From Bacteroidia bacterium (lineage in GTDB: Bacteria > Bacteroidota > Bacteroidia > NS11-12g > UBA9320): a DNA stretch of 64,000 nucleotides. The stretch covers positions 416,723 through 480,722 of the forward strand of contig CBDCFW010000006.1 of assembly GCA_965216465.1 (NCBI GenBank). Direction: 5' to 3'. Below are positions 9,734 through 48,782 of this stretch, piece by piece; the stretch's first letter is position 1; each line of letters opens with the position of its first letter. A model generated the notes under the pieces. That model was not told the DNA's origin. It searched no databases and was given only the letters and a program-made list of their open reading frames with translations. A program made the translations under genes and the position numbers.

Positions 9734-10585
9734 ATGAAGAACTGGCTAATCATATTAATCTTAACCCTATGCATTCATTCAAACGCCACGACCCTCACTC
9801 ATGCCCATTCCCTCCTCCACACCCAAACTCAAACTCAAACTGCCCCATCATTAACCCCATCATTAACCCCATCCTTAACCCCCTGGGATACTGCACTCTA
9901 CATCGATGCTCTTAACGATACCTTTCATATAAAAGTGCATTTGCCGGCAGGTTATGATGCAAGTAAATCGTATCCGTTGCTTTGTTATGTCGATGGAAAT
10001 TTAAATTTGGGTAAAGCAGTAGTTAATCTCTACAAATCAGATGTTAATCGTTCATTTTCAACGACTTGCATCTTGTTAAGCATAGAACATCACGGCAATA
10101 TTCCTGTGCAACGGAGAAGGGATTTTTTATTTGATGGAGCTCCTATTTTCACCGATTTGATGAAGTTGTTGTTTCTTCCTTTAACAAAAGAGAAGTTTAG
10201 CGTTGACGAAAATAATATCTGCTTCTTGGGACATTCATTCGGAGGACTAATCGGCACTTATATGATGCTGAATGACACTTTGTTTAGTCACCATATTTTA
10301 TTGAGTCCTTCATTTTGGGTTAAAGACAAAGCGATATTTCAATATTTAGAAGAATCACCTGTTAGTTCTTACTTTATTTCGTGTGGTGGCATGGAACGCT
10401 TCAACGGAATTCATGACAATGTTCTTGATTTTGTAGAATCTGCTGAGCAGTATCATGGCACGGAAAACATTCAATTAATTGTTTACCCATTCGCAAGACA
10501 TAGCTCTTATCTGGATCGTGGGGTGAGGGATGGGGTCACGTGGTGGTTGGGGAAGGCTGAAAGTAAATCTGACGGAACGCCGTAA
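9734..10585 (+). CDS. putative esterase (enterochelin-esterase-like alpha/beta hydrolase) with TQ/SLTP repeat linker
   Basis: Signal peptide MKNWLIILILTLCIHSNA, a GHSFGG nucleophile elbow, and a low-complexity TQTQTQT-APSLTPSLTPSLTP linker after the signal peptide. Confidence 0.65.
   Translation: MKNWLIILILTLCIHSNATTLTHAHSLLHTQTQTQTAPSLTPSLTPSLTPWDTALYIDALNDTFHIKVHLPAGYDASKSYPLLCYVDGNLNLGKAVVNLYKSDVNRSFSTTCILLSIEHHGNIPVQRRRDFLFDGAPIFTDLMKLLFLPLTKEKFSVDENNICFLGHSFGGLIGTYMMLNDTLFSHHILLSPSFWVKDKAIFQYLEESPVSSYFISCGGMERFNGIHDNVLDFVESAEQYHGTENIQLIVYPFARHSSYLDRGVRDGVTWWLGKAESKSDGTP
9819..9885 (+). repeat. (CAAACT)3 followed by 3 x 12-bp CCATCATTAACC repeats inside esterase gene
   Basis: Direct reading: cacacccaaactcaaactcaaactgccccatcattaaccccatcattaaccccatccttaacccc. 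Confidence 0.85.
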
Positions 10586-10593
10586 GATCCACA

Positions 10594-10680
10594 CTCTAAC
10601 TCAAACTCAAACTCCAACCAAACCTCTAGACTCGCACTCACACTCCAACTCTAACTCACACTGCCATTAACCCCAAAATA
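10594..10680 (+). repeat. degenerate direct copy of the ACTCAAACTC...GCCATTAACCCC repeat downstream of esterase gene
   Basis: ctctaactcaaactcaaactccaacc...actcacactgccattaacccc, direct reading. Confidence 0.8.
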
Positions 10681-11340
10681 CTCCTTATACCATTCCGTTT
10701 CGTGATGGTCAATTTTGGTCTCATCTACTTTGTGATTAACGTCTAGCTTTGCATAAAGAATTTCAAGCGAAGCAAAATCGCGTTGACTGATAACTTGAAT
10801 GTTGTTTCTCAACAATAGAGCGGCACATACACCGACACCTATTTGATAAACCTTGTTCTCTGCAAATCGATTTCCATCGTAGATAACTTGGCTGCCGCAT
10901 GCAGCACTGATATCCATCATCACAGCTAACTCTATGTTCTGATCTTTTGCTATTTCTAACATTTTGTGGGCGGCTGCAATCATACCTTTTGTCCAATCGA
11001 GACCAGATTCTGTTAAAACTTTGGCTTTGCCATCAAGTACATCATCGCCATTTCCACCGTGGATATCACACATTTCTCTTGGGGTACCAAACGAGAATTC
11101 TTCAGGACAAAATCGCGTGACTTTTGCATTGTCGTACTTTAATAACTGCAATGCACTGGGATACCTTCCGTTTGCTGTTCCATCGTAACCACATTCTACT
11201 CCAGCCAAGCATGCACTCATTAAAATGCGAAGTGGATTGTCTGCAGTTGGGCGACGAAGTGATTGTAGTTTTTGACGGTCAGTCATGCTCAAATTAAGGA
11301 ATAAGCATTTTAAGTATTTCTGCAAGCTTTTTGAGGTCAA
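10651..11340 (-). CDS. DUF523-family protein
   Basis: LAGVECGYDGTANG block matches the DUF523/YbbK-like family. Confidence 0.55.
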   Translation of the reverse strand: MTSKSLQKYLKCLFLNLSMTDRQKLQSLRRPTADNPLRILMSACLAGVECGYDGTANGRYPSALQLLKYDNAKVTRFCPEEFSFGTPREMCDIHGGNGDDVLDGKAKVLTESGLDWTKGMIAAAHKMLEIAKDQNIELAVMMDISAACGSQVIYDGNRFAENKVYQIGVGVCAALLLRNNIQVISQRDFASLEILYAKLDVNHKVDETKIDHHETEWYKEYFGVNGSVS

Positions 11341-11785
11341 CTTGATCCTTGAATAACTGAATCTTCAAACTTCTTTCTGGATTTGGTGATAAGCATGCGT
11401 CAATGATGCTCTGCAAGTAACGCTTAAATTCAAGCTCATCATCATCCGGAAACTTCGTAAATACAAAACCATTTTCTTTTTGTCCGATGTAAACTAAGAC
11501 ACAAGGATCAGGTAATTTTATATTGAACTGGTTGTTAATATTGATGATTAACTGAGAATATTCTTCAATCTGATTTGAATAAAAGTACAAAAGATGAACT
11601 TTTGAACCGGCATAGGCAGATAAATGCTGATTTCGAGAGTCGTCTGTAAGTAGTTTTCCTGCCTTTGAAGAAGGATGAACAAATGGAATAATTAACGCTT
11701 CATCTTCAGCCATATCCTCTAAATGGCTAATTTTATCTGCAATATCTTCAACAGATTCTTGTGAAATATAGTTAAAAGTAAACAT
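11294..11785 (-). CDS. hypothetical protein (start probably internal Met MFTFNY, adjacent to upstream stop)
   Basis: ORF in an AT-rich segment. The internal ATG at 11785 lies 1 nt after the TGA of the upstream gene, an operon-like junction. Confidence 0.35.
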   Translation of the reverse strand: MFTFNYISQESVEDIADKISHLEDMAEDEALIIPFVHPSSKAGKLLTDDSRNQHLSAYAGSKVHLLYFYSNQIEEYSQLIININNQFNIKLPDPCVLVYIGQKENGFVFTKFPDDDELEFKRYLQSIIDACLSPNPERSLKIQLFKDQVDLKKLAEILKMLIP

Positions 11786-13235: not shown

Positions 13236-16200
13236 ATGTTCAATTTTCGTTCAGTACTAACCTTACTCTTTCTGACTTCTTGTGCTACTGCATTTTCGCA
13301 ACAAACTATCATCGTTGACCACTTAGGGTCAGGCGATTACACCACAATTCAGGATGCCCTAAATTCAATTAACGGGACCACCATCACCCAAGAAACCCGC
13401 ATCCAAATCAAAGCAGGGACATACGATGAGCACCTGCAAATTGACAGCATTCAAGGTACAAGCTCAATTAACAGAGTAATTCTCGAATCATTTTCTGGCG
13501 ACACCGCTGATGTTTTAATCTTTCACGATTCAGTAGATATTTTTCCTGCCCGATCGAGTGTTGACATCAGAAAAACAAAGCATCTGCTCTTTCAAAACCT
13601 CAGTTTTAGATGTCCAGAAGATGAAGGTTATATCGTTGGTTTAGACGAAGGTGTTGGCGAACTTGAATTTAACGGTTGTCATTTTTTTAAGGGCTCAGGC
13701 ATTGACGACAAACCCGCAATCAGTTTGAACTATAGCTTTAGTGCTTCCGATTACGATTTAGGTAGCTTGTATCTAAGAAACAATCAGTGTACAGATGTTC
13801 GACTGTTTTCGCGCGATATCTCCTTGTTTAATATTGAAACGCTTGAAATAACGAACAATACTATTTCTTACGTCAACTCTACCAGTAATGATGTGCCCAT
13901 ATTGCAAGCCAAAGTGGTTGAAGTTCAAAATAACACGTTCAACAACTCTTCAGTCGGTATCGTTACTGGAGCAGATAAGATCACGATTACCGGCAATTTT
14001 TGTTCTACACGAAGTACAGCCATTTCGATCAATACAAGAACCAAAGGAGATACTTCAGCACTTGTTGCCAATAACATGATTAGTACCAAAAGAACGGTTG
14101 GAGTTCATGTTGCAACTGGAAAAGTTGACGTGCTCAACAACAACATCCATAACTACGATACCATTTCACAATCCATGGCCGTTTATCTCGGTAGTCTTGA
14201 TTCTGTTAGGGTGATAAATAACATTATGAGCAGTTTGGGAACCAAAGCAATTGGCTTCTTTTTATTCGATACGCTAATCCCTTCTAGCTTTTATTGCGAC
14301 TACAACAACTATCATTTCCCAGAAGGTAATTACACCTTGAACAACTTCACATTCCCTGCTACAACAACAAGCTCTATTGCCGAAAATATGAGCAAATACA
14401 ATATTGATTCGAACAGTGTGGCCTTTGACCCGCTCTTCGTCTCCGATTTTGACTTGCACACACGCAATGGAATTCTCAAAGGCAAAGGGATTCATTTACC
14501 CGAAGTACTCTTTGATATAGATGGCGATGCACGTGATCCTGATGAGCCCATAATTGGTGCAGATGTGATAACCGAAAGCGTAGATCTTGTGCCGAGCAGC
14601 TTTAAAAACTTTGTTGGACAATTCTATCCCGGTAAAACCATGGAAATTGAATACGAAGTTTCAAACAGTGGTGGCCTCGACCTTAGTTCTTTAACCTGGT
14701 ACGATGACATTTATTTGAGTTCAGATCAAACTCTAGACGAAGGCGACATCCGACTCGAAACCATTACCAACAACTTTACGGTAGATGCTTCGGACCTCTA
14801 TTCGAGACGTCCCTCTGTATCTATTCCCTATATTGCTGGAGGAACTTATTACTTCATTCTTCAAACCAACTCAACCAAGATTGCATTTGAAGACACCACC
14901 AACAATACGCTAGTTTCTTCAGCTAGAGTTTTGCCTGTGCCCCAATTGCCGAATTTAGAAGTAACAAGTGTTACCGTTCCTCCTTCAATCTTCAGCGGGA
15001 AGCAATTCACCCTCAGCTGGACAGTCGAAAACACAGGAAACGCAAGTACAACAGGCAGCTGGAGTGACTATGTGTATTTCGCTACCAATGAAAATATTCT
15101 CAAACTGAACAATCAAGGCATTAAAGATTCCTTGCTACGCATAAAGGTTTCTGCTCCCACAGGATTGAAAGCAGGCGAATCATACACTTCTTCTACCACG
15201 CTAGGTTTTACCTATCAAATTTTCCGGAAATGTGTACTACCGCGTGCAAACAAATGGCAATCTCAACATATTTGAACAAGACACAACGTTTGTTGACAAT
15301 GGAAAAATAAGTGCAGCACTCAATGTTATTCAATCGCCGCTTCCAGACCTTACAATCACTGGATTGAACATACAGTCTTCTGCCTTTTCTGGAGATACTG
15401 TATTAGCGAATTGGACGGTAAAAAATGTAGGCCAACAAAAGACCTACAGAACAGACCGATTCTATAAACCTACTCCACTGGAAGACAACCCAAGAATGTG
15501 GTACGATCGCTTGATTATTTCGAAGAATCCAGTATTTGATCCGAACGATAAAAACAACATTCAAAAAGCTTTCTATAGCCGTGCCGCTAATGATGAACTC
15601 GATGTTGATTCATCGTATACCGTTAATGCAAAAGTTGCCTTTAGTCGTTGTGAATATGGCAAGTATTATGTTTTTGCCGTAACCAATTACACGGCATCTA
15701 CCTTCGAGCTTCGATACGATAACAACGTGGTATTGATGGATAGCATTGAGCTGATACTTCAGCCCAACCCTGACCTCAAACCAACGTCAATCAGTGTAAC
15801 CAATGAGCCTGCTTCAGGTAAAACCATCGACATCGATTACACCATCGAAAATGACGGTTTTGATGATTGGCGTGGATTCAGTTTTAAGAACAGATTCTAC
15901 ATCCACCCTAACCCAACATTCAATGCTCAAGAAGCTCAATTTTTAGGCAGAACCTATGTTTATGATTCATTGTTGAAAGGCGATGATTTCTCAGAATCGG
16001 TAACCTTTGATGTGCCTTACCGCGTATACGGAGATCAATACGTTACAGTATTTACCGACGAAGATCAAAAGATTTGCGAGGCTCCAAACGACGACAACAA
16101 CATCCTCACTACCAGTTTAGTAGATGTCGAACTTTCGAAACAACCTGATTTGGTTCTGGAGGTAAATGAGATTCCAGACACCTTAATTCCAGGTCAAAAT

Positions 16201-19200
16201 TTACAGCTTATTATCTCTACAAAAAATCAAGGAGAAGAAGCGGCTCGCGAAGGATACTGGTACAACACCGTTCATCTGATTAGCAACATAAATTATGAGC
16301 TAAGAAAGTATAGAATATCGGATGAGTTAGGTGCCGGACTAACACGTAACGACACCTTGAACATTACCATTCCATTAGACCTAAAAGAAGGCTTTTATAT
16401 TGTTCGTCTTACTACGGATTTTACCGACCGAATTTTTGAATTTGGAGGTGAGCAAAACAACATTTTGAGCAGTGATGTGGTTCAAGTGGTGCGTGATGAC
16501 AACCGAGTTCCTGACCTTGATGTTATGAGTTTGAAGGTGCTTGAGACTGATCCTCGAGCCGGCGATGAAGTTTCGTTAGAAGTTAAAATTCTAAACCGTA
16601 GTTTAACTACATCCCAAACAGGCTGGAAAGGAAAAATTGAACTGGAAGATGCCGATGGAAACTTATATGCATTCTTCTACCCAAATCACCTTGGCCGGAT
16701 AGCCAAAGATCAAACGGTGACCGACACCGTTAAAATTAGACTGCCTTTTAGCAAAAGCGGTCAAATCACTTTCCATTATACGACCAACCACGAGAATAAG
16801 CCTATTGAGTATGTGCGAGCGAACAATACTCGGTCGATTACCCGTTCAGTGCTGGCCTATATCCCACCCGACTTAGAGCCTTCGAAGATTACTTCGCAAG
16901 TGTGTTGTAATGTATATTCATTTCAGCATGACACGCTATCAATAGAAGTTGATAATAACGGCCCTGGAGATGTTTTAGGCAGAGGATACTTTGCGAAAGT
17001 GTACTTGTCGGATGATGAAATTCTGGACAAGCACGATTATCATTTAGCCACACATCAACACTTTAGCGGTGTTCGTTCGGGTTCAACCGAAACCTTAGAT
17101 ATTCCTGTTAAATATCCTTACACCCGAGCTGGAACATTGTTTTATATCGTTGAAATAGATACAGACAATGATATTTATGAAGGTGGAAATGAAGACAACA
17201 ACAAGTACACTTCGGGTTATTCGATTAACCTTTCCAATGAGATAACCGACCTCTCATTGGACTCAATTTCAATCACCAATTATACAGGACCCGATGACCG
17301 GTATGTGTTTGTAAATTACACCTTCTCAAAACCAGCAGGCGACTCGATATATCGAAACTGGAACAACTATATCTTGCTCTCCCAAGATAAGCGTTCATTG
17401 CCGCATGCAGTGGGGACGACTCCTCATGAATATACGGCCAATCTACCGGGAAATGTAGACACCTTTATGGAAACCAAATTGGCTACCATGCCTCGAAACT
17501 TACAACCGGGTTACTATTTTATCGGGATGTTGCTAGACCGGAATAATGAGGTGTACGAAACCACGGAAGATAACAATGTACTGTTCTCTTCTGACAGTTT
17601 TTACTTCGATTTTTCGGTTCCATTAGAGTTAGACAGCATAAAAGACACTTTCTGGATAGAAGGCCAGTTTGCGAGCAGTTTGTATTACAATGTTGAACGT
17701 CCACAAGACAAAGGAATGATCGTCAACTTAGATGTTTCTGACAAAAATGCATCTACCGAAATGTATCACCGAGCAGGCTTTATTCCTTCGGCCACGGTAT
17801 ACGACAACAAGTACAACAATCCATTTCTTGCCGATCAAGAAATCTTGGTTCCGGTAACTGATACCGCTGTTAAGGATTACTTGTACGTAGTGCCCAAGTA
17901 TGTACCTCCGGTATATGACATCCACGATCGATTGGATCCCGTTCCCTATTCGATAGTTGCCAACTCTGCAGAATTTAGCATTCATTCCGTAGCACCTAAT
18001 ACAGGAAGCGTTTACGGCAATACTACAGTGCAAGTGAAAGGCTTCGATTTTGACAGCGAGACTAACTTCATATTGTTAAATGCATCGAACGATACCATCA
18101 CCCCATTTGCTGAAAAAATCTTGAATTCAAGTGAGGCGGTACTCACCTTCGACCTCCGAGAAAAAGAGCTAGGTTTCTACGACTTGTTGGCTCTAAAACC
18201 TGCGTCAAAGGCTACGCTAGATCAAGGATTTGAAGTTGACACCTTGGGATTTGAAGACCCATGGGTGAATGTTGATATACCGCACCTACACTTGACCCGC
18301 AAGCCTGCGGTGATGAACATCAATTTTGGAAATCATGCCAACACGAACGGCTACGATTATTGGCTGGTTGTGGCGATTACCAACGCCAAGCAAAATGTAG
18401 ATCACTTAGAAACCAGTTTTGTAGGTTCCTCTGAAGAGGAATTGAATGAATTGTATGATTTTACTGGTAATCCAACAGGAGATTCGACCCATGTTGATAT
18501 TGATGGTATTCGCTACTTTGTGTATTGGATTCCACAGTTATCGGCCAAAGCACAAACTACATTTACGTATACCATAAAGCATTCAGAAGAGGATACAACT
18601 ATGGTATACAGTCTGTTGTTCCGTCAACCGTTGAGTGCATTTTCAATGTCTGGACGATTTGGGGATCTGTGGGAAAGTCAGACTGTGTACGAATGGTATG
18701 AAGCCTATTCAGACAATGTTGGTTTGAAAGAAAAAGCTGGATTTGACTGCAACCGAATCGATATAAAAAATGTACAACAGGAGTTGGCGAACCAAACCAT
18801 AGAGCATGCCAAGAATGTGCATGGTGGTGTAGGAACATTTGGTGCTGCACGAGGCGGACGCGATGTGGCTAAAATTGCCTTTGAAGAATGGAAAAAAGAT
18901 GTGCGAAGCATCGGTGATTCGAAAACGCAGCAAGACATGTTGAAAGACATGGTTTTCAAGAAGAAATCGATTACAGAAACGGCTACAGACTACTTGAAAA
19001 AAATCGACCCTAGAACCAACGCAACCGAGCGATTCTACAAAAAAGATCCTCCTTTTGGCAATTTGGTGAAGGATGTATTTAGCTGTTTGGATAACGATCC
19101 TGAGTTTAAGAAAAACATCAACCGTTGTATCCATGTAAGTTCACACCCGAGGTACGGAAAGACGTATCACAACCTCTGTAAAAAGAAGAAAAAGGATAAC

Positions 19201-20337
19201 GAAGACAACTTCATTACGCGTTGGGTAAATTCAATTGACCCGAATGAGATTGAAGGCCCTCAAGGTGTTACTGATTTGCGTTATGTTGATCAAGGTGAAG
19301 ACATGAATTACATCATCCGATTTGAGAATAAGCCAGAAGCATCTGCTCCAGCGGTAACGGCGTCGATTAACAATCCACTCGATTCTGCGTTCAGATTGCA
19401 GTCTTTTGCATTGAAGGAAATTGGTTTTGGAGACACCGTAATCATTTTGAACGATGAAAATAGCTTGAACCAAGTATATGACTTAGGTCCAAAATACAAT
19501 GATCAGCAGTTGCATGTTGTTGCTGGTTTAGATGTGTTAAACCATCAAGCCGTATGGAGAATGACGACCATCAACCCTGCTACTGGAAATCCGGTGGATG
19601 ACCCATTTGGCGGCTTCTTACCACCAAATGATAGCACAGGAATTGGGGAAGGCTATGTGAAATATGTGATTAAAATGGTTGATGATGTTGAGGTTGGAAA
19701 TGAAGTATTAAATGCTGCAGATATTATCTTCGATCAGAACGAGATCATTCCTACCAATACCTGGTCGAATATAGTAACTGGAAGTGCTCCGAGCAGTCAT
19801 GTTAAAGCCCTACCTAGCAATTCAGCTAAAGAATTTACAGTGAATTGGACAGGTACAGATGGCGAATTGGGACCGGGAATACACTCCTACTCGATTTATG
19901 TATCGAAGGATGACGAAGCCTATTATGAATGGATTGCAAATTCATCGGATACCAGTGCACAATTCATTGGCGAACCGGGAAGTGTTTATCGTTTTTACAG
20001 CATCGTTAATTTAATGAATGGGGCAAGTGAAGGAATTCCGGCCACTTATGATGCAATAACGGAAATAGACCCTGCACGTATTGAACGTATTATTGAAGAA
20101 AACAGGCTGGTGATTTATCCTAATCCAGGAAGTGGAGTGATTAACATCCGTCAAGAGCATGCTAAGCAATTGCACATCACCTTACGCTCGATTCACGGAC
20201 AAGTATTGGGAGAATATGATCTATCAGAATTAGAAAACGAGATTGAAGTTTATCATCTTCCTGCAGGCTTGTACATTATTGAAATGAACCAAGATGGAGT
20301 AAGAAGAAATGTAAGATGGTTGAAAGGGGAGGGTTAA
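13236..20337 (+). CDS. giant secreted cell-surface protein (beta-helix plus CARDB-like repeats) with T9SS type-A C-terminal sorting domain; split by apparent +1 frameshift at ~15205-15275
   Basis: Signal peptide at 13236. The two ORFs (13236-15275 and 15232-20337) overlap by 71 nt in adjacent frames with continuous domain architecture. C-terminus ...VIYPNPGSGVINI...LPAGLYIIEM matches the Por_Secre_tail sorting domain. Confidence 0.6.
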
Positions 20338-24643: not shown

Positions 24644-25492
24644 ATGAAACTCCTCCTCCGCTTTCTAAAAATATTAGCTCTTCTATATATCCTCATTTGT
24701 ACCCTGCTCTACTTCTTCCAAGAAAAGCTGATTTTCTTTCCGCAGAAACTTGAACAAGACTACCAGTTTAGTTTTGAGCAAGAGCGAGAATTTGAGGAAC
24801 TGTTTTTTGAAGCAGAAGATGGAACTAAACTGCACGGCATATTCTTTAAGGGGGTTAATGCGGTTAATGGGGTTAATGGGGTTAATGGGGTTAATGGGAA
24901 AGATAGCTCCAAAGGACTTATCTTCTACCTCCACGGTAACGGAAGCTCACTCAGCTCGTGGGGAAACGTAGCTAACACCTACACCAAACTCAATTACGAT
25001 GTCTTCATCCTCGACTATCGAGGCTACGGAAAAAGTGGTGGAAGCATAACCAGTCAAGAACAACTGTATGCCGATAACCAGTTGATATACAACGACTTTA
25101 ATAAAAGATACGACGAAAACAAGATTACCCTTCTCGGCTATTCTATCGGATCTGGAATGGCAGCTCATCTTGCATCCACCAACACTCCAAAACAACTTAT
25201 CCTTCAAGCTCCGTATTATAGCTTAACAGACCTCATGAAGAAGAAGTATGCCATCATCCCTCCCTTCATTCTGAGGTATAAATTCGAAACCAATGAATAC
25301 CTCAAAGACTGCAACATGCCCATCACCGTTTTTCACGGCACCAACGATAAAGTGATATACTACAGCTCATCCATCAAACTCAAAAAGGACTTTAATCAAA
25401 TCAAACTCTTCCCGCTTGAGGGTCGAGGACACAACGGCATGACAGACAATCCTATCTACCAACAAGAAATTGAACAAATCTTAATGGAGTAA
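24644..25492 (+). CDS. alpha/beta hydrolase with in-frame (GVN)5 repeat
   Basis: GYSIGSG nucleophile elbow and a HGTND...GHN catalytic-triad context. Contains a VNAVNGVNGVNGVNG repeat. Confidence 0.65.
   Translation: MKLLLRFLKILALLYILICTLLYFFQEKLIFFPQKLEQDYQFSFEQEREFEELFFEAEDGTKLHGIFFKGVNAVNGVNGVNGVNGKDSSKGLIFYLHGNGSSLSSWGNVANTYTKLNYDVFILDYRGYGKSGGSITSQEQLYADNQLIYNDFNKRYDENKITLLGYSIGSGMAAHLASTNTPKQLILQAPYYSLTDLMKKKYAIIPPFILRYKFETNEYLKDCNMPITVFHGTNDKVIYYSSSIKLKKDFNQIKLFPLEGRGHNGMTDNPIYQQEIEQILME
24851..24898 (+). repeat. 5 x 9-bp tandem repeat GGGGTTAAT (in-frame, inside hydrolase gene)
   Basis: Direct reading: ggggttaatgcggttaatggggttaatggggttaatggggttaatggg. Confidence 0.9.
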
Positions 25493-27146: not shown

Positions 27147-28877
27147 TTATCCAAGCTCAATTCCCTCCGACCATTCCAATCCACTCGCAAGTTTTGCAGA
27201 AGAAAACTCCAAATGAAGCACCCTCCTTTTTTTGGGGTTGCTAGACTTCGAACTTTTGTGAAGCAATAAAGGCTTCATGAGCATGATCCCTCCGGCTTCT
27301 ATTTCTATCGGGATAGGATCAGTATTCTCGGTGATAAGCTTCCGTTCTGCATCACTGTGTATCTTTTTGTGTGAACCAGGAATTACCTGCAAGCCGCCAC
27401 CATTCTTTGGACTAACATCATCCAAATAAATACGCAAGGTGAATGTATTTTGATTAATCTCAATCGGTGGATTCACACTTACGATTCCTTCCTTGCTTGT
27501 CCAACCGGTGTATCCCTTCACCAACTTCTTCTTCACGACATTTATAGCTCGATCTTGATGCCAGGTAACATACCAATTAGCCTTTTCGGTCTTGTTAAAA
27601 AAAATTGATTTACACAGCTGAGCATCCTTATCGATTGATTTAATAACCTTAAGAACTCCTTTGGTAATCACCAGATCCAGTAAGTTCGGATGTTTATTCA
27701 ATAAAGCCCTTTCAGAAAATTTATCAGGATTCGCTTGAAGTTGTAAGGCTTTATCCAGAGCCCTGCTTAACCTTTTTATTTCACGCAAGCTGAGAACATG
27801 GTTTAGGATGGCATATCCCTTATGTTCTAACTGTTTGCCTGCTGCCTTAATATTCTTATCGGTTAACTCGGTAGTATAGTTGCTTACACTTTGTTTTAGT
27901 CTATCCTCAATTCTTCGTTGCAAATCAGCAGGTTGCAAAACCTTCACCGATTCACCATACGAAAGAATCTCTTTCTCCAGCTCAAAATTGTGCTGCACCT
28001 TCAGTGCTATAACTACACCAAAATTATCTCTTTTGATTACGGTTTGCGAATGGTGCAGCGGCTTGGTAATAATGTAAGGTGCATGAGCATGATCAATAAA
28101 TATTTCTACATCCATAAGTGGAGCATTGGGAGAAACCGATACCCCAATCGCATTTCTAAAATAGGCTGCAGTATCAAAACTGTCATCCATTCTATAAGCA
28201 GATTTTCCAGCAGAAAGATTAACGATACGATCCAAGGCCAGGTTCAATATCCCTTCGGCCTTATGCTTACAACCAATCACAAACCATCTATTTCTAAACT
28301 CTTTGAGTAAGTACGGATGAAAATCAAATGAATTGGCCTTTCGAGCCTTAAATGATTTATAAGTGAGGTTGATTGTTCGTTTCTTGATAATGGCATTGTA
28401 GATCGTGTCGAGGTATTCCAATCCCTTTAAGTTCTCATTCTTCTCGAAATCAATCACCGGTTTAGTAGCTGTTTTCTGCGAATAAATGTGATCTTCCAAC
28501 TTCTGAACCATGCCATCCAATTCTCTAAAGTGAGAGAATCCCTGAAACTGCTTCATAAACTCAACTGCTTCGGTGAGCTTCCCTAAATCTTGTTCAGTAA
28601 GTGGAATATTGGTAATCGAATAATCTGCATCTTCATAGGTGTAGTACTTCTTATCCAATACAATTATCGGAGCAAAGTAACCCAGCTTATCGCTTCGCAT
28701 AATTTGGATATCGGCTTGTACCGTCCGTTTACTTACCCCTTTGTCGATCCCCTCGTATTCATATAGTGCATCTGAGCATGCTTCAATCAAGTCTTCCAAC
28801 GTCCATTTTCTGTATCTGTTCTGCAGACATTGATCAATGGTTTTGTAGCGTATGAGTGCATTCTTATTTACCGACAT
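27147..28877 (-). CDS. wHTH-WYL domain regulator fused to PhyH/EctD-like Fe(II)/2-oxoglutarate dioxygenase domain
   Basis: N-terminus NALIRYKTIDQCLQNRYRKWTLEDL (wHTH) and a WYL-like block FHPYLLKEFRNRWFVIG. C-terminus has WHQD...PGSHK...R, which is the PhyH-type HxD...H...R iron/2OG triad. Confidence 0.65.
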   Translation of the reverse strand: MSVNKNALIRYKTIDQCLQNRYRKWTLEDLIEACSDALYEYEGIDKGVSKRTVQADIQIMRSDKLGYFAPIIVLDKKYYTYEDADYSITNIPLTEQDLGKLTEAVEFMKQFQGFSHFRELDGMVQKLEDHIYSQKTATKPVIDFEKNENLKGLEYLDTIYNAIIKKRTINLTYKSFKARKANSFDFHPYLLKEFRNRWFVIGCKHKAEGILNLALDRIVNLSAGKSAYRMDDSFDTAAYFRNAIGVSVSPNAPLMDVEIFIDHAHAPYIITKPLHHSQTVIKRDNFGVVIALKVQHNFELEKEILSYGESVKVLQPADLQRRIEDRLKQSVSNYTTELTDKNIKAAGKQLEHKGYAILNHVLSLREIKRLSRALDKALQLQANPDKFSERALLNKHPNLLDLVITKGVLKVIKSIDKDAQLCKSIFFNKTEKANWYVTWHQDRAINVVKKKLVKGYTGWTSKEGIVSVNPPIEINQNTFTLRIYLDDVSPKNGGGLQVIPGSHKKIHSDAERKLITENTDPIPIEIEAGGIMLMKPLLLHKSSKSSNPKKRRVLHLEFSSAKLASGLEWSEGIELG

Positions 28878-28933: not shown

Positions 28934-28954
28934 CTACGCAAAAACACTGCGTAG
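28934..28954. promoter_or_regulatory. palindromic operator CTACGCA-N7-TGCGTAG (copy 1), in the divergent region between the WYL gene and the tRNA array
   Basis: Direct reading. The same 7-7-7 palindrome plus downstream AATCTTTGTA...ACAAAACG recurs at 32621-32641. Confidence 0.7.
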
Positions 28955-29019
28955 TTCGATTAAAATCTTTGTATAACAAAACGGAGGAAACTCTAAAATT
29001 ACGTTCATTTATATAAACT

Positions 29020-29043
29020 CCCTCGAGCAATCGGGCTCGAGGG
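29020..29043. other. GC-rich hairpin CCCTCGAGC-AATCGG-GCTCGAGGG, 19 nt upstream of the first tRNA
   Basis: Perfect 9-bp stem read directly. Confidence 0.5.
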
Positions 29044-29061
29044 ATTGATAAACAATACTTT

Positions 29062-29142
29062 GCCCTTATGGCGGAATGGCATACGCAGCAGTCTTAGAAA
29101 CTGTGGCCGCAAGGCATGTAGGTTCAACTCCTACTAGGGGCA
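29062..29142 (+). tRNA. tRNA-Leu (anticodon TAG), class II
   Basis: Hand-folded cloverleaf: acceptor GCCCTTA/TAGGGGC, anticodon loop CTTAGAA, long variable arm, T-loop GGTTCAACTCC. Confidence 0.75.
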
Positions 29143-29143
29143 C

Positions 29144-29217
29144 TTTGGGATGGTCTAACGGAAGGACGGGTGGTTTTGAGCCACTAAGTGGAGGTTCGAC
29201 CCCTTCTCCCAAAACCA
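29144..29217 (+). tRNA. tRNA-Gln (TTG), U1:A72, encoded CCA
   Basis: Acceptor TTTGGGA/TCCCAAA, loop TTTTGAG, T-arm GGAGGTTCGACCCCTTC, 3' ACCA. Confidence 0.7.
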
Positions 29218-29226
29218 AGTATATAT

Positions 29227-29302
29227 CTAGATGTAGGGGAGTCAGGCTTTTCCCGCTCGCTTTGGACGCGAGAGCACGTTGGTTCGAATCCAGCCATCTA
29301 GA
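29227..29302 (+). tRNA. tRNA-Pro (TGG), enlarged D-loop
   Basis: Acceptor CTAGATG/CATCTAG, anticodon stem CTCGC/GCGAG, loop TTTGGAC, T-arm GTTGGTTCGAATCCAGC. Confidence 0.65.
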
Positions 29303-29304
29303 CT

Positions 29305-29376
29305 GTGACTGTAGTATAACGGCAAATACACCAGGTTGTGACCTTGGTTATGAGAGTTCGATTCTCTCCAGTCACC
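29305..29376 (+). tRNA. tRNA-His (GTG)
   Basis: Acceptor GTGACTG/CAGTCAC with C discriminator, loop TTGTGAC, T-arm GAGAGTTCGATTCTCTC. Confidence 0.7.
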
Positions 29377-29381
29377 AAAAT

Positions 29382-29453
29382 GCTCCTATAGCATAATGGT
29401 TAGTGCAGCAGGTTTTCAACCTGAAGATTAGGGTTCAATTCCCTGTAGGAGTA
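29382..29453 (+). tRNA. tRNA-Glu (TTC)
   Basis: Acceptor GCTCCTA/TAGGAGT, loop TTTTCAA, T-arm TAGGGTTCAATTCCCTG. Confidence 0.7.
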
Positions 29454-29458
29454 CAAAT

Positions 29459-29530
29459 ACAGATGTGGCCGAACGGATAGGCACTCCGCTTCTAACGGAG
29501 CACATAAGGGTTCGAATCCTTTCATCTGTA
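29459..29530 (+). tRNA. tRNA-Arg (TCT)
   Basis: Acceptor ACAGATG/CATCTGT, anticodon stem CTCCG/CGGAG, loop CTTCTAA. Confidence 0.7.
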
Positions 29531-29533
29531 CAT

Positions 29534-29601
29534 GGGCAAGCAAGCAGGATAGAATGAGTCTTCGAAACTCTAGTCGGTAGGTTCGAATCCTACCTTGCTC
29601 A
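29534..29601 (+). tRNA. short (68-nt) atypical tRNA, anticodon loop CTTCGAA (TCG, Arg-like), reduced D-arm
   Basis: Acceptor GGGCAAG/CTTGCTC, T-arm GTAGGTTCGAATCCTAC. Only a 4-bp anticodon stem, and a ~12-nt D region. Confidence 0.45.
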
Positions 29602-29606
29602 CAAAT

Positions 29607-29680
29607 GGGGTAGATACACAAGTGGCTCGCACCTTGCACTTGCAATGCGAGGGTTGTCGGTTCAAGACCGACCTACTCCA
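29607..29680 (+). tRNA. tRNA-Ala (TGC) with G3:U70 identity pair
   Basis: Acceptor GGGGTAG/CTACTCC (G3:T70), loop CTTGCAA, T-arm GTCGGTTCAAGACCGAC. Confidence 0.75.
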
Positions 29681-29686
29681 CAAAAT

Positions 29687-29758
29687 TGAGATGTAGCTCA
29701 GAGGCAGAGCAGTCGGCTGTTAACCGTCAGGACGAGATTTCGAAACTCTCCATCTCAG
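29687..29758 (+). tRNA. tRNA-Asn (GTT), U1:A72
   Basis: Acceptor TGAGATG/CATCTCA, D-arm TAGCTCAGAGGCAGAGC, loop CTGTTAA. Mismatches in the anticodon stem and T-stem. Confidence 0.6.
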
Positions 29759-29764
29759 CAAATC

Positions 29765-29841
29765 GGTTTAGTGTGCTCTACTGGTGTAGGGATTTAGCTT
29801 GTCACGCTTCAAAAACGAGGGTTCGAAACCCTCCTAGACCG
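29765..29841 (+). tRNA. aberrant tRNA-like gene, anticodon loop TTGTCAC (GTC, Asp-like), poor anticodon stem
   Basis: Acceptor GGTTTAG/CTAGACC and T-arm GAGGGTTCGAAACCCTC are clean. The D region contains an extra hairpin CTCTAC-TGGT-GTAGGG, and the anticodon stem has only 3 bp. Confidence 0.4.
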
Positions 29842-29848
29842 CAAATAT

Positions 29849-29922
29849 TCCTCTATAGCTCAGATGGTGGTAGCACTCGGCTTTTAACCGAGGGGTCCTA
29901 GGTTCAAGTCCTAGTGGGGGAA
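29849..29922 (+). tRNA. tRNA-Lys (TTT), U1:A72
   Basis: Acceptor TCCTCTA/TGGGGGA, anticodon stem CTCGG/CCGAG, loop CTTTTAA, T-arm CTAGGTTCAAGTCCTAG. Confidence 0.7.
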
Positions 29923-29930
29923 CATTTTAT

Positions 29931-30007
29931 TGAGTAGTAACCGCCCAGTCTGATATGCTGGAGTTAGGTAATGGTTGTAAATGTTGGTTCGAATCCGACC
30001 TACTCAA
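29931..30007 (+). tRNA. aberrant tRNA-like gene (perfect acceptor and T-arm, no canonical D/anticodon arms); isotype undetermined
   Basis: Acceptor TGAGTAG/CTACTCA, T-arm GTTGGTTCGAATCCGAC. The interior holds a CCAG-N9-CTGG hairpin and no 5-bp/7-nt anticodon arm. Confidence 0.35.
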
Positions 30008-30016
30008 CTTAAATAT

Positions 30017-30093
30017 TGTGGAGTGATTACGATTGGTAAGTAGGCGGTCTCATAAGCCGAGGTATGTGGATTCGATTTCCACCTCCGCAACCA
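30017..30093 (+). tRNA. tRNA-Met (CAT), encoded CCA
   Basis: Acceptor TGTGGAG/CTCCGCA, loop CTCATAA, T-arm GTGGATTCGATTTCCAC, 3' ACCA. Confidence 0.6.
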
Positions 30094-30094
30094 T

Positions 30095-30165
30095 GCGAGT
30101 GAAGCATTTCGGTAATGCACCTGCCTTCCAAGTAGGAGAGCTAGGTTCGACTCCTAGTACTCGCA
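30095..30165 (+). tRNA. tRNA-Gly (TCC)
   Basis: Acceptor GCGAGTG/TACTCGC, anticodon stem CCTGC/GTAGG, loop CTTCCAA, T-arm CTAGGTTCGACTCCTAG. Confidence 0.7.
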
Positions 30166-30170
30166 CTTAT

Positions 30171-30244
30171 TGGCCTTTAGCTTATGCGGTAGAAGCCCCT
30201 CACTCATAATGAGGAGATAGATGGTTCGAATCCATCAAGGCCAA
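30171..30244 (+). tRNA. tRNA with CAT anticodon (Met or Ile2/lysidine), U1:A72
   Basis: Acceptor TGGCCTT/AAGGCCA, D-arm GCTT...AAGC, anticodon stem CCTCA/TGAGG, loop CTCATAA. Confidence 0.7.
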
Positions 30245-30249
30245 CATTT

Positions 30250-30324
30250 AGTTCACTAGCCCAAATGGAAGAGGCAACGGGTTTAAGCCCCGTACAGGTC
30301 TGAGTTCGAATCTCAGGTGAACTA
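30250..30324 (+). tRNA. class-I-shaped tRNA with anticodon TAA (reads UUA, Leu) - atypical short variable arm
   Basis: Acceptor AGTTCAC/GTGAACT, anticodon stem ACGGG/CCCGT, loop TTTAAGC, a 5-6 nt variable region, T-arm CTGAGTTCGAATCTCAG. Confidence 0.55.
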
Positions 30325-30329
30325 CAAAC

Positions 30330-30399
30330 ATACTTCTGGCGATGGCAGCCGTTTGGTCTCCAAAACCAAAAGAACAAGGTTCGATTCCTTGGGAGTATG
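30330..30399 (+). tRNA. tRNA-Trp (CCA), short D-arm
   Basis: Acceptor ATACTTC/GGAGTAT, anticodon stem TTGGT/ACCAA, loop CTCCAAA, T-arm CAAGGTTCGATTCCTTG. Confidence 0.65.
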
Positions 30400-30404
30400 C
30401 ATAA

Positions 30405-30478
30405 GATAGGATGGCTGAGTGGTTTAAAGCGGCAGACTGCAAATCTGTTATTCAGGAGTTCGAATCTCCTTCCTATCT
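30405..30478 (+). tRNA. tRNA-Cys (GCA) with U73 discriminator
   Basis: Acceptor GATAGGA/TCCTATC plus T, anticodon stem GCAGA/TCTGT, loop CTGCAAA, T-arm AGGAGTTCGAATCTCCT. Confidence 0.7.
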
Positions 30479-30483
30479 CACTT

Positions 30484-30556
30484 GCGACTTAAGCTAACCT
30501 GGTGGAAGCATTGGTCTGAAAAACCAAAGGGCGAGGATCGTAACCTCGAAGTCGCA
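30484..30556 (+). tRNA. tRNA-Phe (GAA), unusual T-loop ATCGTAA
   Basis: Acceptor GCGACTT/AAGTCGC, anticodon stem TTGGT/ACCAA, loop CTGAAAA, T-arm CGAGGATCGTAACCTCG. Confidence 0.65.
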
Positions 30557-30562
30557 CAATAT

Positions 30563-30634
30563 GGGTTATGGTAGTGGCATCCAGCCGAGACTGTAAATCT
30601 CTAGCCTTGTAGGGTTCGAATCCCTGCTAACCCA
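30563..30634 (+). tRNA. tRNA with GTA anticodon (Tyr) but short variable arm and irregular D-arm - atypical for bacteria
   Basis: Acceptor GGGTTAT/CTAACCC (one mismatch), anticodon stem GAGA/TCTC, loop CTGTAAA, a 7-nt variable region, T-arm TAGGGTTCGAATCCCTG. Confidence 0.5.
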
Positions 30635-30639
30635 CACAA

Positions 30640-30711
30640 GCTATCTAAGCATTAATGGTGATGCACTGGCCTTGTAAACCAGATAAATAGGTTCGATTCC
30701 TATAGGTAGCT
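30640..30711 (+). tRNA. tRNA-Thr (TGT)
   Basis: Acceptor GCTATCT/AGGTAGC, D-arm GCAT...ATGC, loop CTTGTAA, T-arm ATAGGTTCGATTCCTAT. Confidence 0.6.
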
Positions 30712-30716
30712 CATTT

Positions 30717-38916: not shown

Positions 38917-39957
38917 GTGAAAAAAAAATTTAGTGAATATTATAGTATCAGTAAAGATCGATTAGAAGAACACTGGGAAAAGGATACCTTTAGTTTTGAC
39001 GCTAATGTTCTTTTGAATCTATATAGATATACTCCTAAGACTAGAGATGCTTTTTTCGCTTTATTTGAAAAGATTAAAGAACGAATTTGGATCTCTTACC
39101 AAGCCGCATTTGAATATCAAAAAAATAGACTTGTTGTTATCAACGCCCAAAAAGAAGCTTATAAGGAAATAAGGGATACTTTAAAAAAGAAGAAAGGTGA
39201 GATTGAAGCCAAACTTAATGGTTTTAAAAAACATCCATACCTACAGACTAGTGAATTAAAAACTCAAATAGAGTCGGCATTTCAATCTATCAGTAAAGAT
39301 TTAGACAAATTAGAGAAAAATCACCCTGACTACTTGGTAAAAGACCCTATATGGGAGCGATTAACGGAGTTACTGGATTCGAATGTTGGAGACGATTTTA
39401 ACAAAGAGGAATTAGAAAAAATATATAGAGAAGGTAAGAAACGATATGATGAAAAAGTTCCTCCAGGATATATGGATTTAAAAGATAAAAAAAACGAAGG
39501 AAATAGATCTTTATACGGAGATATAATTGTTTGGAAACAAGTTATTGCCAAAGGCAAAGAAATCGACAATTCAATAATTCTAATAACGGACGATTTAAAG
39601 GAAGATTGGTGGTATAAGTTTAAAGGAAAAACAATTAGCCCCAGACCAGAACTAATCAAAGAATTCAAAGAGGAGGCCAACAAGCAAATTAACATCTATC
39701 AAGCCGATCGATTTTTAGAATTGGCTAATAAAAATTTAGAACAACGTACAACGTTGGAAGCAATTGAGGAAGTTCGAAAGGTAAGGTTGGCAGATGAAAA
39801 AGATATAGAAAAAGAAATAAGAGCATTCGAAATGCTCTTAGAGGATAATGGAGATGAGAATTTTAGAGAAAATGCTAGAATATTAGCAAACGTTGAAAAA
39901 AGCTCCTTTGAAAATGCAATCGAAAATAGTATCGCGGATAATAAAAAAAATAAATGA
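38917..39957 (+). CDS. PIN-like (DUF4935-type) domain protein with coiled-coil C-terminus
   Basis: N-terminal FSFDANVLLNLY(R) acidic PIN-like motif. The C-terminal half is charged and helical. Confidence 0.4.
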   Translation: MKKKFSEYYSISKDRLEEHWEKDTFSFDANVLLNLYRYTPKTRDAFFALFEKIKERIWISYQAAFEYQKNRLVVINAQKEAYKEIRDTLKKKKGEIEAKLNGFKKHPYLQTSELKTQIESAFQSISKDLDKLEKNHPDYLVKDPIWERLTELLDSNVGDDFNKEELEKIYREGKKRYDEKVPPGYMDLKDKKNEGNRSLYGDIIVWKQVIAKGKEIDNSIILITDDLKEDWWYKFKGKTISPRPELIKEFKEEANKQINIYQADRFLELANKNLEQRTTLEAIEEVRKVRLADEKDIEKEIRAFEMLLEDNGDENFRENARILANVEKSSFENAIENSIADNKKNK

Positions 39958-40316
39958 GTAACGACTTTGAAAATTCAATTGACGGATTTCATCAAGATCA
40001 GCCCCAAAGAGACGCAAAAGCTATCTTTTCAAGGTTAATTCAAGAAGATCAATATTTAGGAGACATATTCTCAATTAATTATGAACTGTCTAAAGTTTTG
40101 GTTCATGATTTCCATAGACAAAAAGTAGGAGGAATTCCGAGTCTTTGTTTTCTTATTGCAACTAGAATAAATGTAAATGAAAATATTGATTTCAAAGATG
40201 AAGATGCCTCAATTATTCTATTAAGAGTTATGGATGCTGCATCCATTCCGCAAGATCGAGAAGCAGAAAAAATAAGAGTTGAAACAGCTCAGCTGTATGA
40301 CGTCAACCAAATCTGA
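39954..40316 (+). CDS. hypothetical protein; stop codon lies inside the IS3 left inverted repeat
   Basis: ATGA start overlap with the upstream gene. Its TGA at 40314-40316 is the first 3 nt of the IS terminal repeat. Confidence 0.35.
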   Translation: MSNDFENSIDGFHQDQPQRDAKAIFSRLIQEDQYLGDIFSINYELSKVLVHDFHRQKVGGIPSLCFLIATRINVNENIDFKDEDASIILLRVMDAASIPQDREAEKIRVETAQLYDVNQI

Positions 40317-48026: not shown

Positions 48027-48782
48027 TCATGGATAAACCTTATCATCAAAATGGAGTTTCCAGTCAAAATATGAAGGCTCACCACCAACGTATTCTATAT
48101 TGTCTTCGGGCCAAAGTTGAGTATAGTGCTTGAGCCATACCCCCTCATAAATATTAGTAAAGTCGTTTACAACCTGCTTGACCAGTTCTAAATCATGTTT
48201 TCTATAGATAGAATTGTCAGTATACTCTGACAATATTACGCCATCATAGAAGTCATCACCTGCGTTTGCCATAAAATCCGCCATCAGATATTCATAGTAC
48301 TGCCCATCACTTGGATCTTTCTTAACTGAATAATATCTTTTCAACTGAGTGTCAAACCTTATCCAACCAGACTTTGCATTACGAATATAACTTGTATCCG
48401 TTTCTAAATTAGACCAATTGTGTTTTATTCTTTTACTATTAGCTCTTAGTACTTTGTATTCTTTAATCTGCTCACTCATAGTGTCGGCTAAATCTCTAGA
48501 GCTAGTATAGTTAAAAACAATCTCCTTAGTGGTCAAATCTTCTGTTCCATCGAAGTAGAATGTGTCAAAAAATGCTAACGTATACTCGATAACCCCTGAA
48601 GGAGGGTTAGTATAGTTTCTTGGACTATCAATATATGTCCAATAAGCGTCTTCCATTGGATAAAAATCGAATGGTGGATCTAAGTCAACATTATCTTTAT
48701 CTTTACATGCTTCAAATGCAAGAATGATAGTTGTCGCAACCACTATCTTAACAAATAAACAATTTCGTTTAAGTATTCCCAT
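48027..48782 (-). CDS. hypothetical lipoprotein
   Basis: Signal peptide plus Cys (AFEACKD). Confidence 0.4.
   Translation of the reverse strand: MGILKRNCLFVKIVVATTIILAFEACKDKDNVDLDPPFDFYPMEDAYWTYIDSPRNYTNPPSGVIEYTLAFFDTFYFDGTEDLTTKEIVFNYTSSRDLADTMSEQIKEYKVLRANSKRIKHNWSNLETDTSYIRNAKSGWIRFDTQLKRYYSVKKDPSDGQYYEYLMADFMANAGDDFYDGVILSEYTDNSIYRKHDLELVKQVVNDFTNIYEGVWLKHYTQLWPEDNIEYVGGEPSYFDWKLHFDDKVYP

Follow-up and report, generated by a model that had tools for sequence, protein, structure and literature searches.

The sensing of RNA damage is known in detail for one bacterial regulator alone, the CARF-bearing RtcR of Proteobacteria, and TrcR of cyanobacteria is a second regulator in this field. 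RtcR is a sigma54-dependent activator of CARF-AAA+-HTH (helix-turn-helix) architecture that controls the rtcBA and rsr-yrlBA-rtcBA operons and whose own activating signal is damaged tRNA (PMC7790460). In Anabaena, TrcR is a joint repressor of a tRNA array, rtcB and a slipin gene, and the cyanobacterial 'L-arrays' of tRNA genes stay silent until translation stress (PMC8421152, PMC10272220). Here, a 64-kb stretch of DNA from a Bacteroidia bacterium (64,000 nucleotides of contig CBDCFW010000006.1; hereafter the window) is analysed, in which one gene encodes a protein combining winged helix-turn-helix (wHTH), WYL and WCX domains with a PhyH-type Fe(II)/2-oxoglutarate (2OG) dioxygenase domain. The best-supported reading of this protein is that of a transcription factor which is dedicated to an RNA-damage regulon of Bacteroidota and probably controls its own gene, i.e., the Bacteroidota counterpart of RtcR or TrcR, related to neither.

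In domain order, the regulator resembles DriD of Caulobacter and PafBC of Actinobacteria, HTH-WYL-WCX activators with which it shares only 14-16% sequence identity. These respond to single-stranded DNA (ssDNA), which binds to their WYL domain, and control DNA-damage genes, whereas the regulator of the window stands with RNA-repair and tRNA genes. They also lack an enzymatic C-terminal domain and use a different operator sequence. A link between WYL proteins and RNA repair has already been predicted in the literature, where WYL factors are proposed as sensors of RNA ends bearing a cyclic phosphate and as regulators of RNA repair (PMC9503650).

The likeness to RtcR lies in the arrangement of a dedicated regulator divergent from an RtcB operon, which sometimes includes Ro60. 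A search of the protein for the parts of RtcR (CARF, sigma54-type AAA+ and HTH) returned WYL, WCX and PhyH alone. Having no CARF, AAA+ or sigma54 dependence, the regulator would be a functional analogue of RtcR and not a member of its family. The likeness to TrcR is one of gene content and of control through a short, repeated operator, as the window holds the same gene set (tRNA array, rtcB and slipin/SPFH) in one place, whereas the Anabaena array is carried on a megaplasmid, away from rtcB. TrcR itself is a small ribbon-helix-helix protein without a sensor or enzyme domain, in contrast to the WYL protein described here, and it acts at direct repeats that overlap the -10 element, whereas the predicted operator of the window is a palindrome.

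The oxygenases of the PhyH family, such as PAHX, EctD, the proline hydroxylases, SnoK and AviO1/EvdO/HygX, have in common with the C-terminal domain the fold, an HxD...H triad, an H-x-S motif and a 2OG-binding Arg, at ~13-21% identity. Known members are standalone or biosynthetic enzymes with small-molecule substrates, and none was found described as part of a transcription factor or in connection with RNA repair. As far as we searched, the PhyH fusion is undescribed, and the searchable literature holds no account of the Tpt1-bearing and degenerate variants, the operator or the operator-linked tRNAs reported below; the RNA-repair survey of Burroughs and Aravind (2016) lay outside this coverage. 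The trigger enzymes Ada, PutA and BirA offer a likeness in concept only, each placing a repair or metabolic enzyme domain and a DNA-binding domain on one polypeptide with a cognate regulon, and have no homology to the regulator-PhyH protein.

Domain architecture and catalytic residues

A first interpretation made from the letters alone (the sequence-only reading) had proposed that a wHTH-WYL regulator is fused to a PhyH-type dioxygenase, and Pfam, an AlphaFold2 (AF2) model and Foldseek confirm that this fusion is real. The WYL domain is recovered by a hidden Markov model (HMM), and the C-terminal PhyH fold by both HMM and structure model. WYL, WCX and PhyH all score above the curated Pfam cut-offs (Table 1), and the PhyH match spans the full 213-position profile. 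The dioxygenase had been thought to occupy the place of the WCX domain; since a complete WCX domain is present, PhyH is instead a fourth module that replaces nothing. Nor is the fusion unusual, as had been supposed, but widespread in Bacteroidota. All 120 best-scoring homologue clusters (57-100% identity, ~570-620 residues) carry WYL, WCX and PhyH, and they come from Flavobacteriales, Cytophagales, Saprospiraceae and many Bacteroidota metagenome-assembled genomes (MAGs); one fusion homologue is annotated by JGI as 'YafY / ectoine hydroxylase-related dioxygenase'.

No Pfam HTH model matched the 576-residue protein at E<=1. The winged HTH is seen in the AF2 model, as helices at residues 5-19, 27-42 and 50-61 and strands at 71-74 and 78-81. 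The model, built from 24 homologues, has a mean pLDDT of 82.7, with values above 90 over most of the C-terminal domain. Foldseek gave a full-length alignment to DNA-bound DriD (8tp8; 343 columns, E 1.2e-14), and the family profile of the regulator aligned onto the DriD C-domain across residues 214-330. Of the features of the HTH-WYL-WCX class, to which YafY/COG2378, PafBC, DriD, BrxR and CapW belong, wHTH, WYL, WCX and a predicted operator are found in silico. Within the WYL region, the motifs SFKAR and LKE[FY]RNRW are invariant in the alignment of close homologues, and the basic stretches SFKAR and RNRW are compatible with a nucleic-acid or nucleotide ligand. Searching the protein against NCBIfam returned matches at noise level only. 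Assignment as a recognised defence gene was ruled out, because the PADLOC matches are generic WYL models.

The C-terminal domain displays the double-stranded beta-helix fold, the HxD...H triad, the 2OG Arg and the H-x-S motif of the PhyH family. H440-x-D442, H540, S542 and R551 are invariant across 24 close homologues and, together with W459 and K423, throughout the window's clade (57-100% identity). The metal ligands, which from the PhyH family at large we take to be H440, D442 and H540, are kept in 28 of 40 fusion loci. H540 and R551 align to the conserved 'lvHgS...RR' segment of AviO1. S542 follows H540 by two residues and R551 by eleven, a spacing that presumably matches His264/Ser266/Arg275 of human PAHX. 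The WHQD...PGSHK...R signature on which the dioxygenase assignment had first been based is partly wrong. H503, the His of 'PGSH', is replaced by Q or Y in 5 of the 24 close homologues and, to judge from this alignment, is no metal ligand. To judge by this conservation, the PhyH domains of the window's clade very probably work as Fe(II)/2OG oxygenases. Among the proteins compared, the values were 20.3 for SnoK, 20.0 for trans-proline hydroxylase, 19.8 for AviO1, 18.6 for human phytanoyl-CoA hydroxylase and 16.0 for DriD.

Table 1. Features of the regulator-PhyH locus (positions within the window).
Feature	Position	Strand	Basis or remark
Regulator-PhyH gene	27147-28877	-	ORF listing; ATG start; 576 aa; wHTH-WYL-WCX-PhyH
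Winged HTH, ~residues 1-85	28623-28877	-	AF2 secondary structure and Foldseek to DriD
WYL domain, residues 154-221	28215-28418	-	Pfam PF13280, E 2.4e-13; PADLOC WYL model, E 7.7e-28
WCX domain, residues 255-329	27891-28115	-	Pfam PF25583, E 9.6e-10
PhyH-type Fe(II)/2OG dioxygenase domain, residues 351-553	27219-27827	-	Pfam PF05721, E 3.7e-16
H440 codon	27558-27560	-	
D442 codon	27552-27554	-	
H540 codon	27258-27260	-	
R551 codon	27225-27227	-	
Predicted operator, copy 1	28934-28954		Perfect CTACGCA-N7-TGCGTAG; between regulator gene and tRNA array
17-tRNA array	29062-30712	+	ARAGORN; divergent from regulator, same direction as repair genes
SPFH/Band_7 (slipin-like) gene	31446-32546	+	Pfam PF01145, E 5.7e-25
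Predicted operator, copy 2	32621-32641		Perfect CTACGCA-N7-TGCGTAG; between SPFH stop codon and rtcB
rtcB RNA ligase gene	32682-33842	+	Pfam PF01139, E 3.6e-112
rlaP (RNA-ligase-associated Pol-beta nucleotidyltransferase)	33896-34657	+	Pfam PF10127, E 6.2e-71

A predicted operator, RNA-repair genes and tRNA genes

For comparison with the window, 80 related loci were taken from species-representative genomes; open reading frames (ORFs) were called and clustered, and the clusters were named by Pfam. The nearest of these loci (L001) belongs to a Bacteroidia MAG and shows 75% identity. The regulator orthologues fall into two length classes: long forms with a C-terminal extension, and short forms of ~335-350 residues that stop directly behind WCX and show 56-62% identity over residues 1-334.

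When k-mers were counted in the 300-bp upstream regions of the full set of orthologues, a predicted operator emerged, the 21-bp palindrome CTRCGCA-N7-TGCGYAG. The 64-kb window contains exactly two matches, both perfect, against 0.21 expected at <=2 mismatches. The centre of copy 1 lies 67 bp upstream of the regulator ATG and, on its other side, 118 bp ahead of the point where the array's first tRNA begins, while that of copy 2 lies 51 bp upstream of the rtcB ATG; as far as sequence can tell, this would place a tRNA array and rtcB under a shared operator in the manner of TrcR. Across the loci, the palindrome occurs <=400 bp upstream of the orthologue ATG in 57 of 81, its centre mostly 47-54 bp from the ATG and thus at a near-constant spacing of ~48 bp. 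The first gene <=300 bp downstream of the 105 perfect-core sites is the regulator at 57, rtcB at 27 and Ro60/TROVE at 11, and RNA ligase, RlaP or SPFH at a few sites each. Judged by these predicted sites, the regulator and the RNA-repair genes form a self-consistent in-silico regulon.

The synteny points the same way. Counted over the loci whose upstream sequence extends 3 kb or more (36 long-form and 30 short-form), RNA-repair neighbours are present in 55/66 loci, i.e., 30/36 long-form and 25/30 short-form, and lie nearly always upstream and divergent. RtcB is the neighbour in 23/36 long-form and 15/30 short-form loci, SPFH in 18/36 and 10/30, RlaP in 7/36 and 7/30, an RlaP-like nucleotidyltransferase in 7/36 and 6/30, TROVE/Ro60 with a vWA domain in 6/36 and 6/30, PrfH in 5/36 and 1/30, and PNKP with a T4-type RNA ligase in 0/36 and 4/30. 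In terms of orthologue clusters, RtcB (c1) is found in 40 loci and SPFH (c2) in 28. RlaP has been reported to extend RNA 3' ends with nucleotides in vitro (preprint PMC12776372). Within the 64-kb window, no Ro60/TROVE, PrfH, PNKP or Rnl gene was found.

The proximity of tRNA genes, to which the sequence-only reading had attached meaning, proved to be recurrent and is no coincidence of the window. There are 10 loci (the window, L001, L009, L011, L013, L015, L023, L027, L029 and L033) in which a tRNA gene transcribed away from the operator has its 5' end 77-135 bp downstream of it. The operator-linked tRNAs are Tyr in five cases, Lys, Phe, Asn and Gly, with Leu in the window, tRNA-Tyr(GTA) being the commonest. 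Overall, tRNA genes occur in 27 loci, and 14 hold at least three. The total of 104 tRNAs in 1.4 Mb of loci represents a density that, on the assumption of typical Bacteroidota genomes, we put at several-fold above the genome average. The tRNAs prevailing across the loci are Tyr, Gln, Pro, Lys, Asp, Arg, His and Asn, many of which are classic anticodon-nuclease targets.

The array of the window looks like a stress-type 'L-array' situated between operator 1 and SPFH-rtcB. Its Rfam tRNA scores are mostly 30-67 bits, low for housekeeping tRNAs. Two members, tRNA-Ala (29607-29681) and tRNA-Trp (30330-30400), were missed by Rfam, which in turn gave four extra weak tRNA-like matches (29534-29601, 29931-30007, 30017-30090 and 31098-31168). 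Between operator 1 and the array, ~18 bp before the first tRNA, lies a perfect 10-bp GC-rich hairpin (29019-29044, +; CCCTCGAGCC/GGCTCGAGGG-type; predicted -20.1 kcal/mol) that could serve in termination, in processing or as a roadblock. A candidate Y RNA at 30937-31001 (+) was rejected, its Rfam YrlA score of 35 bits falling short of the gathering score, 69. The match falls on a tRNA-type T-arm (GGTTCGAATCC) and the window has no Ro60/TROVE gene, so that it is probably a tRNA remnant.

Further genes complete the picture of the window. Downstream of rlaP are genes for a short DnaJ-domain protein (35519-35932, +) and a 330-residue protein without a Pfam family (36114-37106, +). About 4 kb past the repair genes, a PIN_8 gene for a PIN-like nuclease (38917-39957, +; E 2.1e-66) is overlapped by a small ORF (39954-40316, +) and could be an RNase or toxin module. 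An alpha/beta hydrolase with an internal GVN tandem repeat (NAVNGVNGVNGVNGK) is encoded at 24644-25492 (+). A type I restriction R-subunit-like helicase (ResIII, EcoEI_R_C; 61663-63912, -) and three very large surface proteins sorted by the type IX secretion system, with Por_Secre_tail or CHU_C domains (15232-20337, +; 48743-51580, -; 51584-56848, -), confirm the chromosomal Bacteroidota setting.

Variation of the C-terminal module

In the long-form alignment, PhyH is intact in 28 loci including the window, retaining H440, D442, H540, S542 and R551. In 12 others (L017, L026, L028, L032-L039 and L047) it is degenerate: at least one Fe/2OG residue is gone and the Pfam PhyH match is lost, with the full length kept. 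In the Mucilaginibacter loci L069 (~10001-11608), L071 (1750-3354) and L073 (8919-10523), a Tpt1/KptA RNA 2'-phosphotransferase domain stands at the PhyH position (PF01885, E 1.2e-51), and a truncated regulator of this type is found in L067. The short-form orthologues carry no C-terminal module after WCX. Of these, the short regulators of Chitinophaga and Flavihumibacter are accompanied by a separate PhyH protein, 35% identical to the window's domain, whose gene comes third, after those of RlaP and an RlaP-like protein, in an operon of that locus (L060-L062 and L064, e.g., L060 3782-6323). Beside this operon lie an RNaseH_like gene (PF04308), tRNA-Gln, tRNA-Ile(TAT), SPFH and the short regulator. 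In L012 (10001-11713), the fusion appears split into a 333-residue regulator ORF and an adjoining PhyH ORF, although the tblastn match is continuous over residues 1-572; the split reflects either gene fission or a sequencing frameshift.

A neighbour-joining tree of the N-terminal 335 residues, computed without support values, shows PhyH, degenerate, short and Tpt1 forms interspersed, which suggests that the C-terminal module was gained, lost or degraded repeatedly. On this comparison of orthologues, the module is evolutionarily labile. That 12 loci have kept a dead PhyH speaks for an additional function of the domain, regulatory or structural, which needs no catalysis. Standalone PhyH proteins (~235 residues) form a large family of >1,300 clusters at 50% identity (E<=1e-10). 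No RNA-repair context was found around the standalone relatives sampled, those of a Flavobacterium (L081), an acidobacterium (L082/83) and a cyanobacterium (L084/85) having housekeeping neighbours. The upstream partner genes of the closest standalone forms, P0279 and P0275, are mutually unrelated and belong to no Pfam family.

Proposed role of the regulator and its PhyH domain

That the protein regulates RtcB genes is highly probable. The combined reading, in which a dedicated RNA-damage transcription factor is equipped with a PhyH input module, is the one we favour, with reasonable rather than high confidence. It is built on the observed domain architecture, intact catalytic residues, conserved synteny and operator positions. 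Briefly, the wHTH, presumably as a dimer, would bind CTRCGCA-N7-TGCGYAG at two places, the regulator's own promoter facing the divergent tRNA array and the site directly upstream of rtcB-rlaP. The WYL-WCX core would sense a nucleic-acid damage signal, as suggested by analogy with DriD and PafBC and by the published WYL prediction, and this signal, most likely cleaved tRNA or RNA ends, would change transcription of the spare tRNAs, the SPFH gene, RtcB and RlaP. The most likely outcome is the switching on of the neighbouring RNA-repair operon and tRNA block, a direction that we infer. PhyH would be a catalytically competent Fe(II)/2OG oxygenase and functionally part of the RNA-damage response, serving as an enzyme-type input or accessory module ('trigger enzyme') that binds or oxidises a damage-related substrate and tunes the regulator. 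The exchange for Tpt1 in orthologues, the RlaP operon of Chitinophaga and the retained dead copies tie PhyH to the RNA-damage response and point to a role within the regulator. We rate the trigger-enzyme step well below the regulator assignment.

Several points weigh against this reading. DNA binding, ligand sensing and oxygenase activity are deduced by computation, and the pTM of the structure model is 0.60, so that its inter-domain geometry is not reliable. Pending the mapping of start sites, the regulator may act as activator or repressor, and the tRNAs may or may not be co-transcribed. Short orthologues are linked to the same genes without a C-terminal module, from which PhyH appears dispensable for the core function, and no operator was found in front of the PhyH operon of Chitinophaga at the stringency applied. 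The structural neighbours of the PhyH domain act on small molecules, and we know of no PhyH-clade enzyme that acts on nucleic acids. Standalone relatives (35-48% identity) sit in unrelated neighbourhoods, so that the ancestral PhyH substrate was probably not RNA.

The alternative that survives best, although we consider it unlikely, is that PhyH is an independent repair or modification enzyme, for example of damaged RNA, aminoacyl-tRNA or a translation protein, which was fused for stoichiometric co-production and has no effect on DNA binding. An enzyme of this kind would fit the intact catalytic residues, the separate PhyH gene in the RlaP operon of Chitinophaga, the two adjacent ORFs of L012 and the short orthologues that work without the domain. 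The 12 loci that retain a full-length, catalytically dead PhyH are, however, hard to explain for a pure enzyme, and the linker residues Y334, T336 and E337, conserved among close homologues, suggest a fixed geometry and not a loose tether.

A more specific form of the favoured reading makes PhyH an RNA-directed oxygenase, acting on tRNA, aminoacyl-tRNA or RNA ends and working as a trigger enzyme; engagement or turnover of damaged RNA would then switch the WYL regulator and induce RtcB, RlaP and the spare tRNAs. We regard this version as doubtful. Somewhat less probable again is a small-molecule or metabolic sensor, in which PhyH would report translational or oxidative stress through 2OG, Fe(II), O2, a ribosome-targeting antibiotic or another metabolite, without RNA chemistry. 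All close structural relatives use small-molecule substrates, and the standalone PhyH relatives are found in housekeeping contexts. AviO1, EvdO and HygX act on orthosomycins and hygromycin B, and KanJ acts on kanamycin; that ribosome-targeting antibiotics are the substrates of those sequence relatives which are nearest among the solved ones makes this alternative more than a formality, and such antibiotics induce the Rtc and TrcR regulons. In contrast, Tpt1/KptA, an enzyme of RNA 2'-phosphate and NAD+ that takes the same position, points to RNA-end chemistry, and PhyH shares an operon with RlaP nucleotidyltransferases.

The sequence-only reading had compared the domain to AlkB-like demethylases or hydroxylases that repair alkylated or modified RNA. 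AlkB-type enzymes do repair RNA, and the RNA part of that interpretation holds as regards the RNA-damage response, through the RtcB-type synteny, the operator and the Tpt1 swap, but AlkB-type membership was not found for the C-terminal domain, which makes an AlkB-like activity very improbable. Finally, the least credible option is that the window's PhyH domain has lost its activity and is kept for structure alone, e.g., for oligomerisation; the degenerate versions in related lineages might speak for it, but the invariance of H440, D442, H540, S542, R551, W459 and K423 is the signature of purifying selection on catalysis.

Taken as an RNA-damage transcription factor with a PhyH input module, the regulator and its family provide Bacteroidota with a regulator of this gene set that is the third known and unrelated to the other two, with a defined predicted operator, and the question of what signals RNA damage becomes directly testable in a third phylum. 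The tRNA genes directly behind the operator, from a single one to 17, suggest joint induction of tRNA replacement and repair. The enzyme modules plugged into the regulator, PhyH or Tpt1, may reveal the chemistry of the damage signal, and the association is a first lead to the function of the small PhyH oxygenases, a very large family with unassigned substrate. If the RNA-directed version were true, the protein would open two categories, that of PhyH-clade enzymes with RNA as substrate and that of WYL regulators whose input is an enzymatic domain. It would add a third, chemically informative way of sensing RNA damage beside RtcR-CARF and TrcR, and the interchangeable Tpt1 module would hint at the chemistry of the signal.

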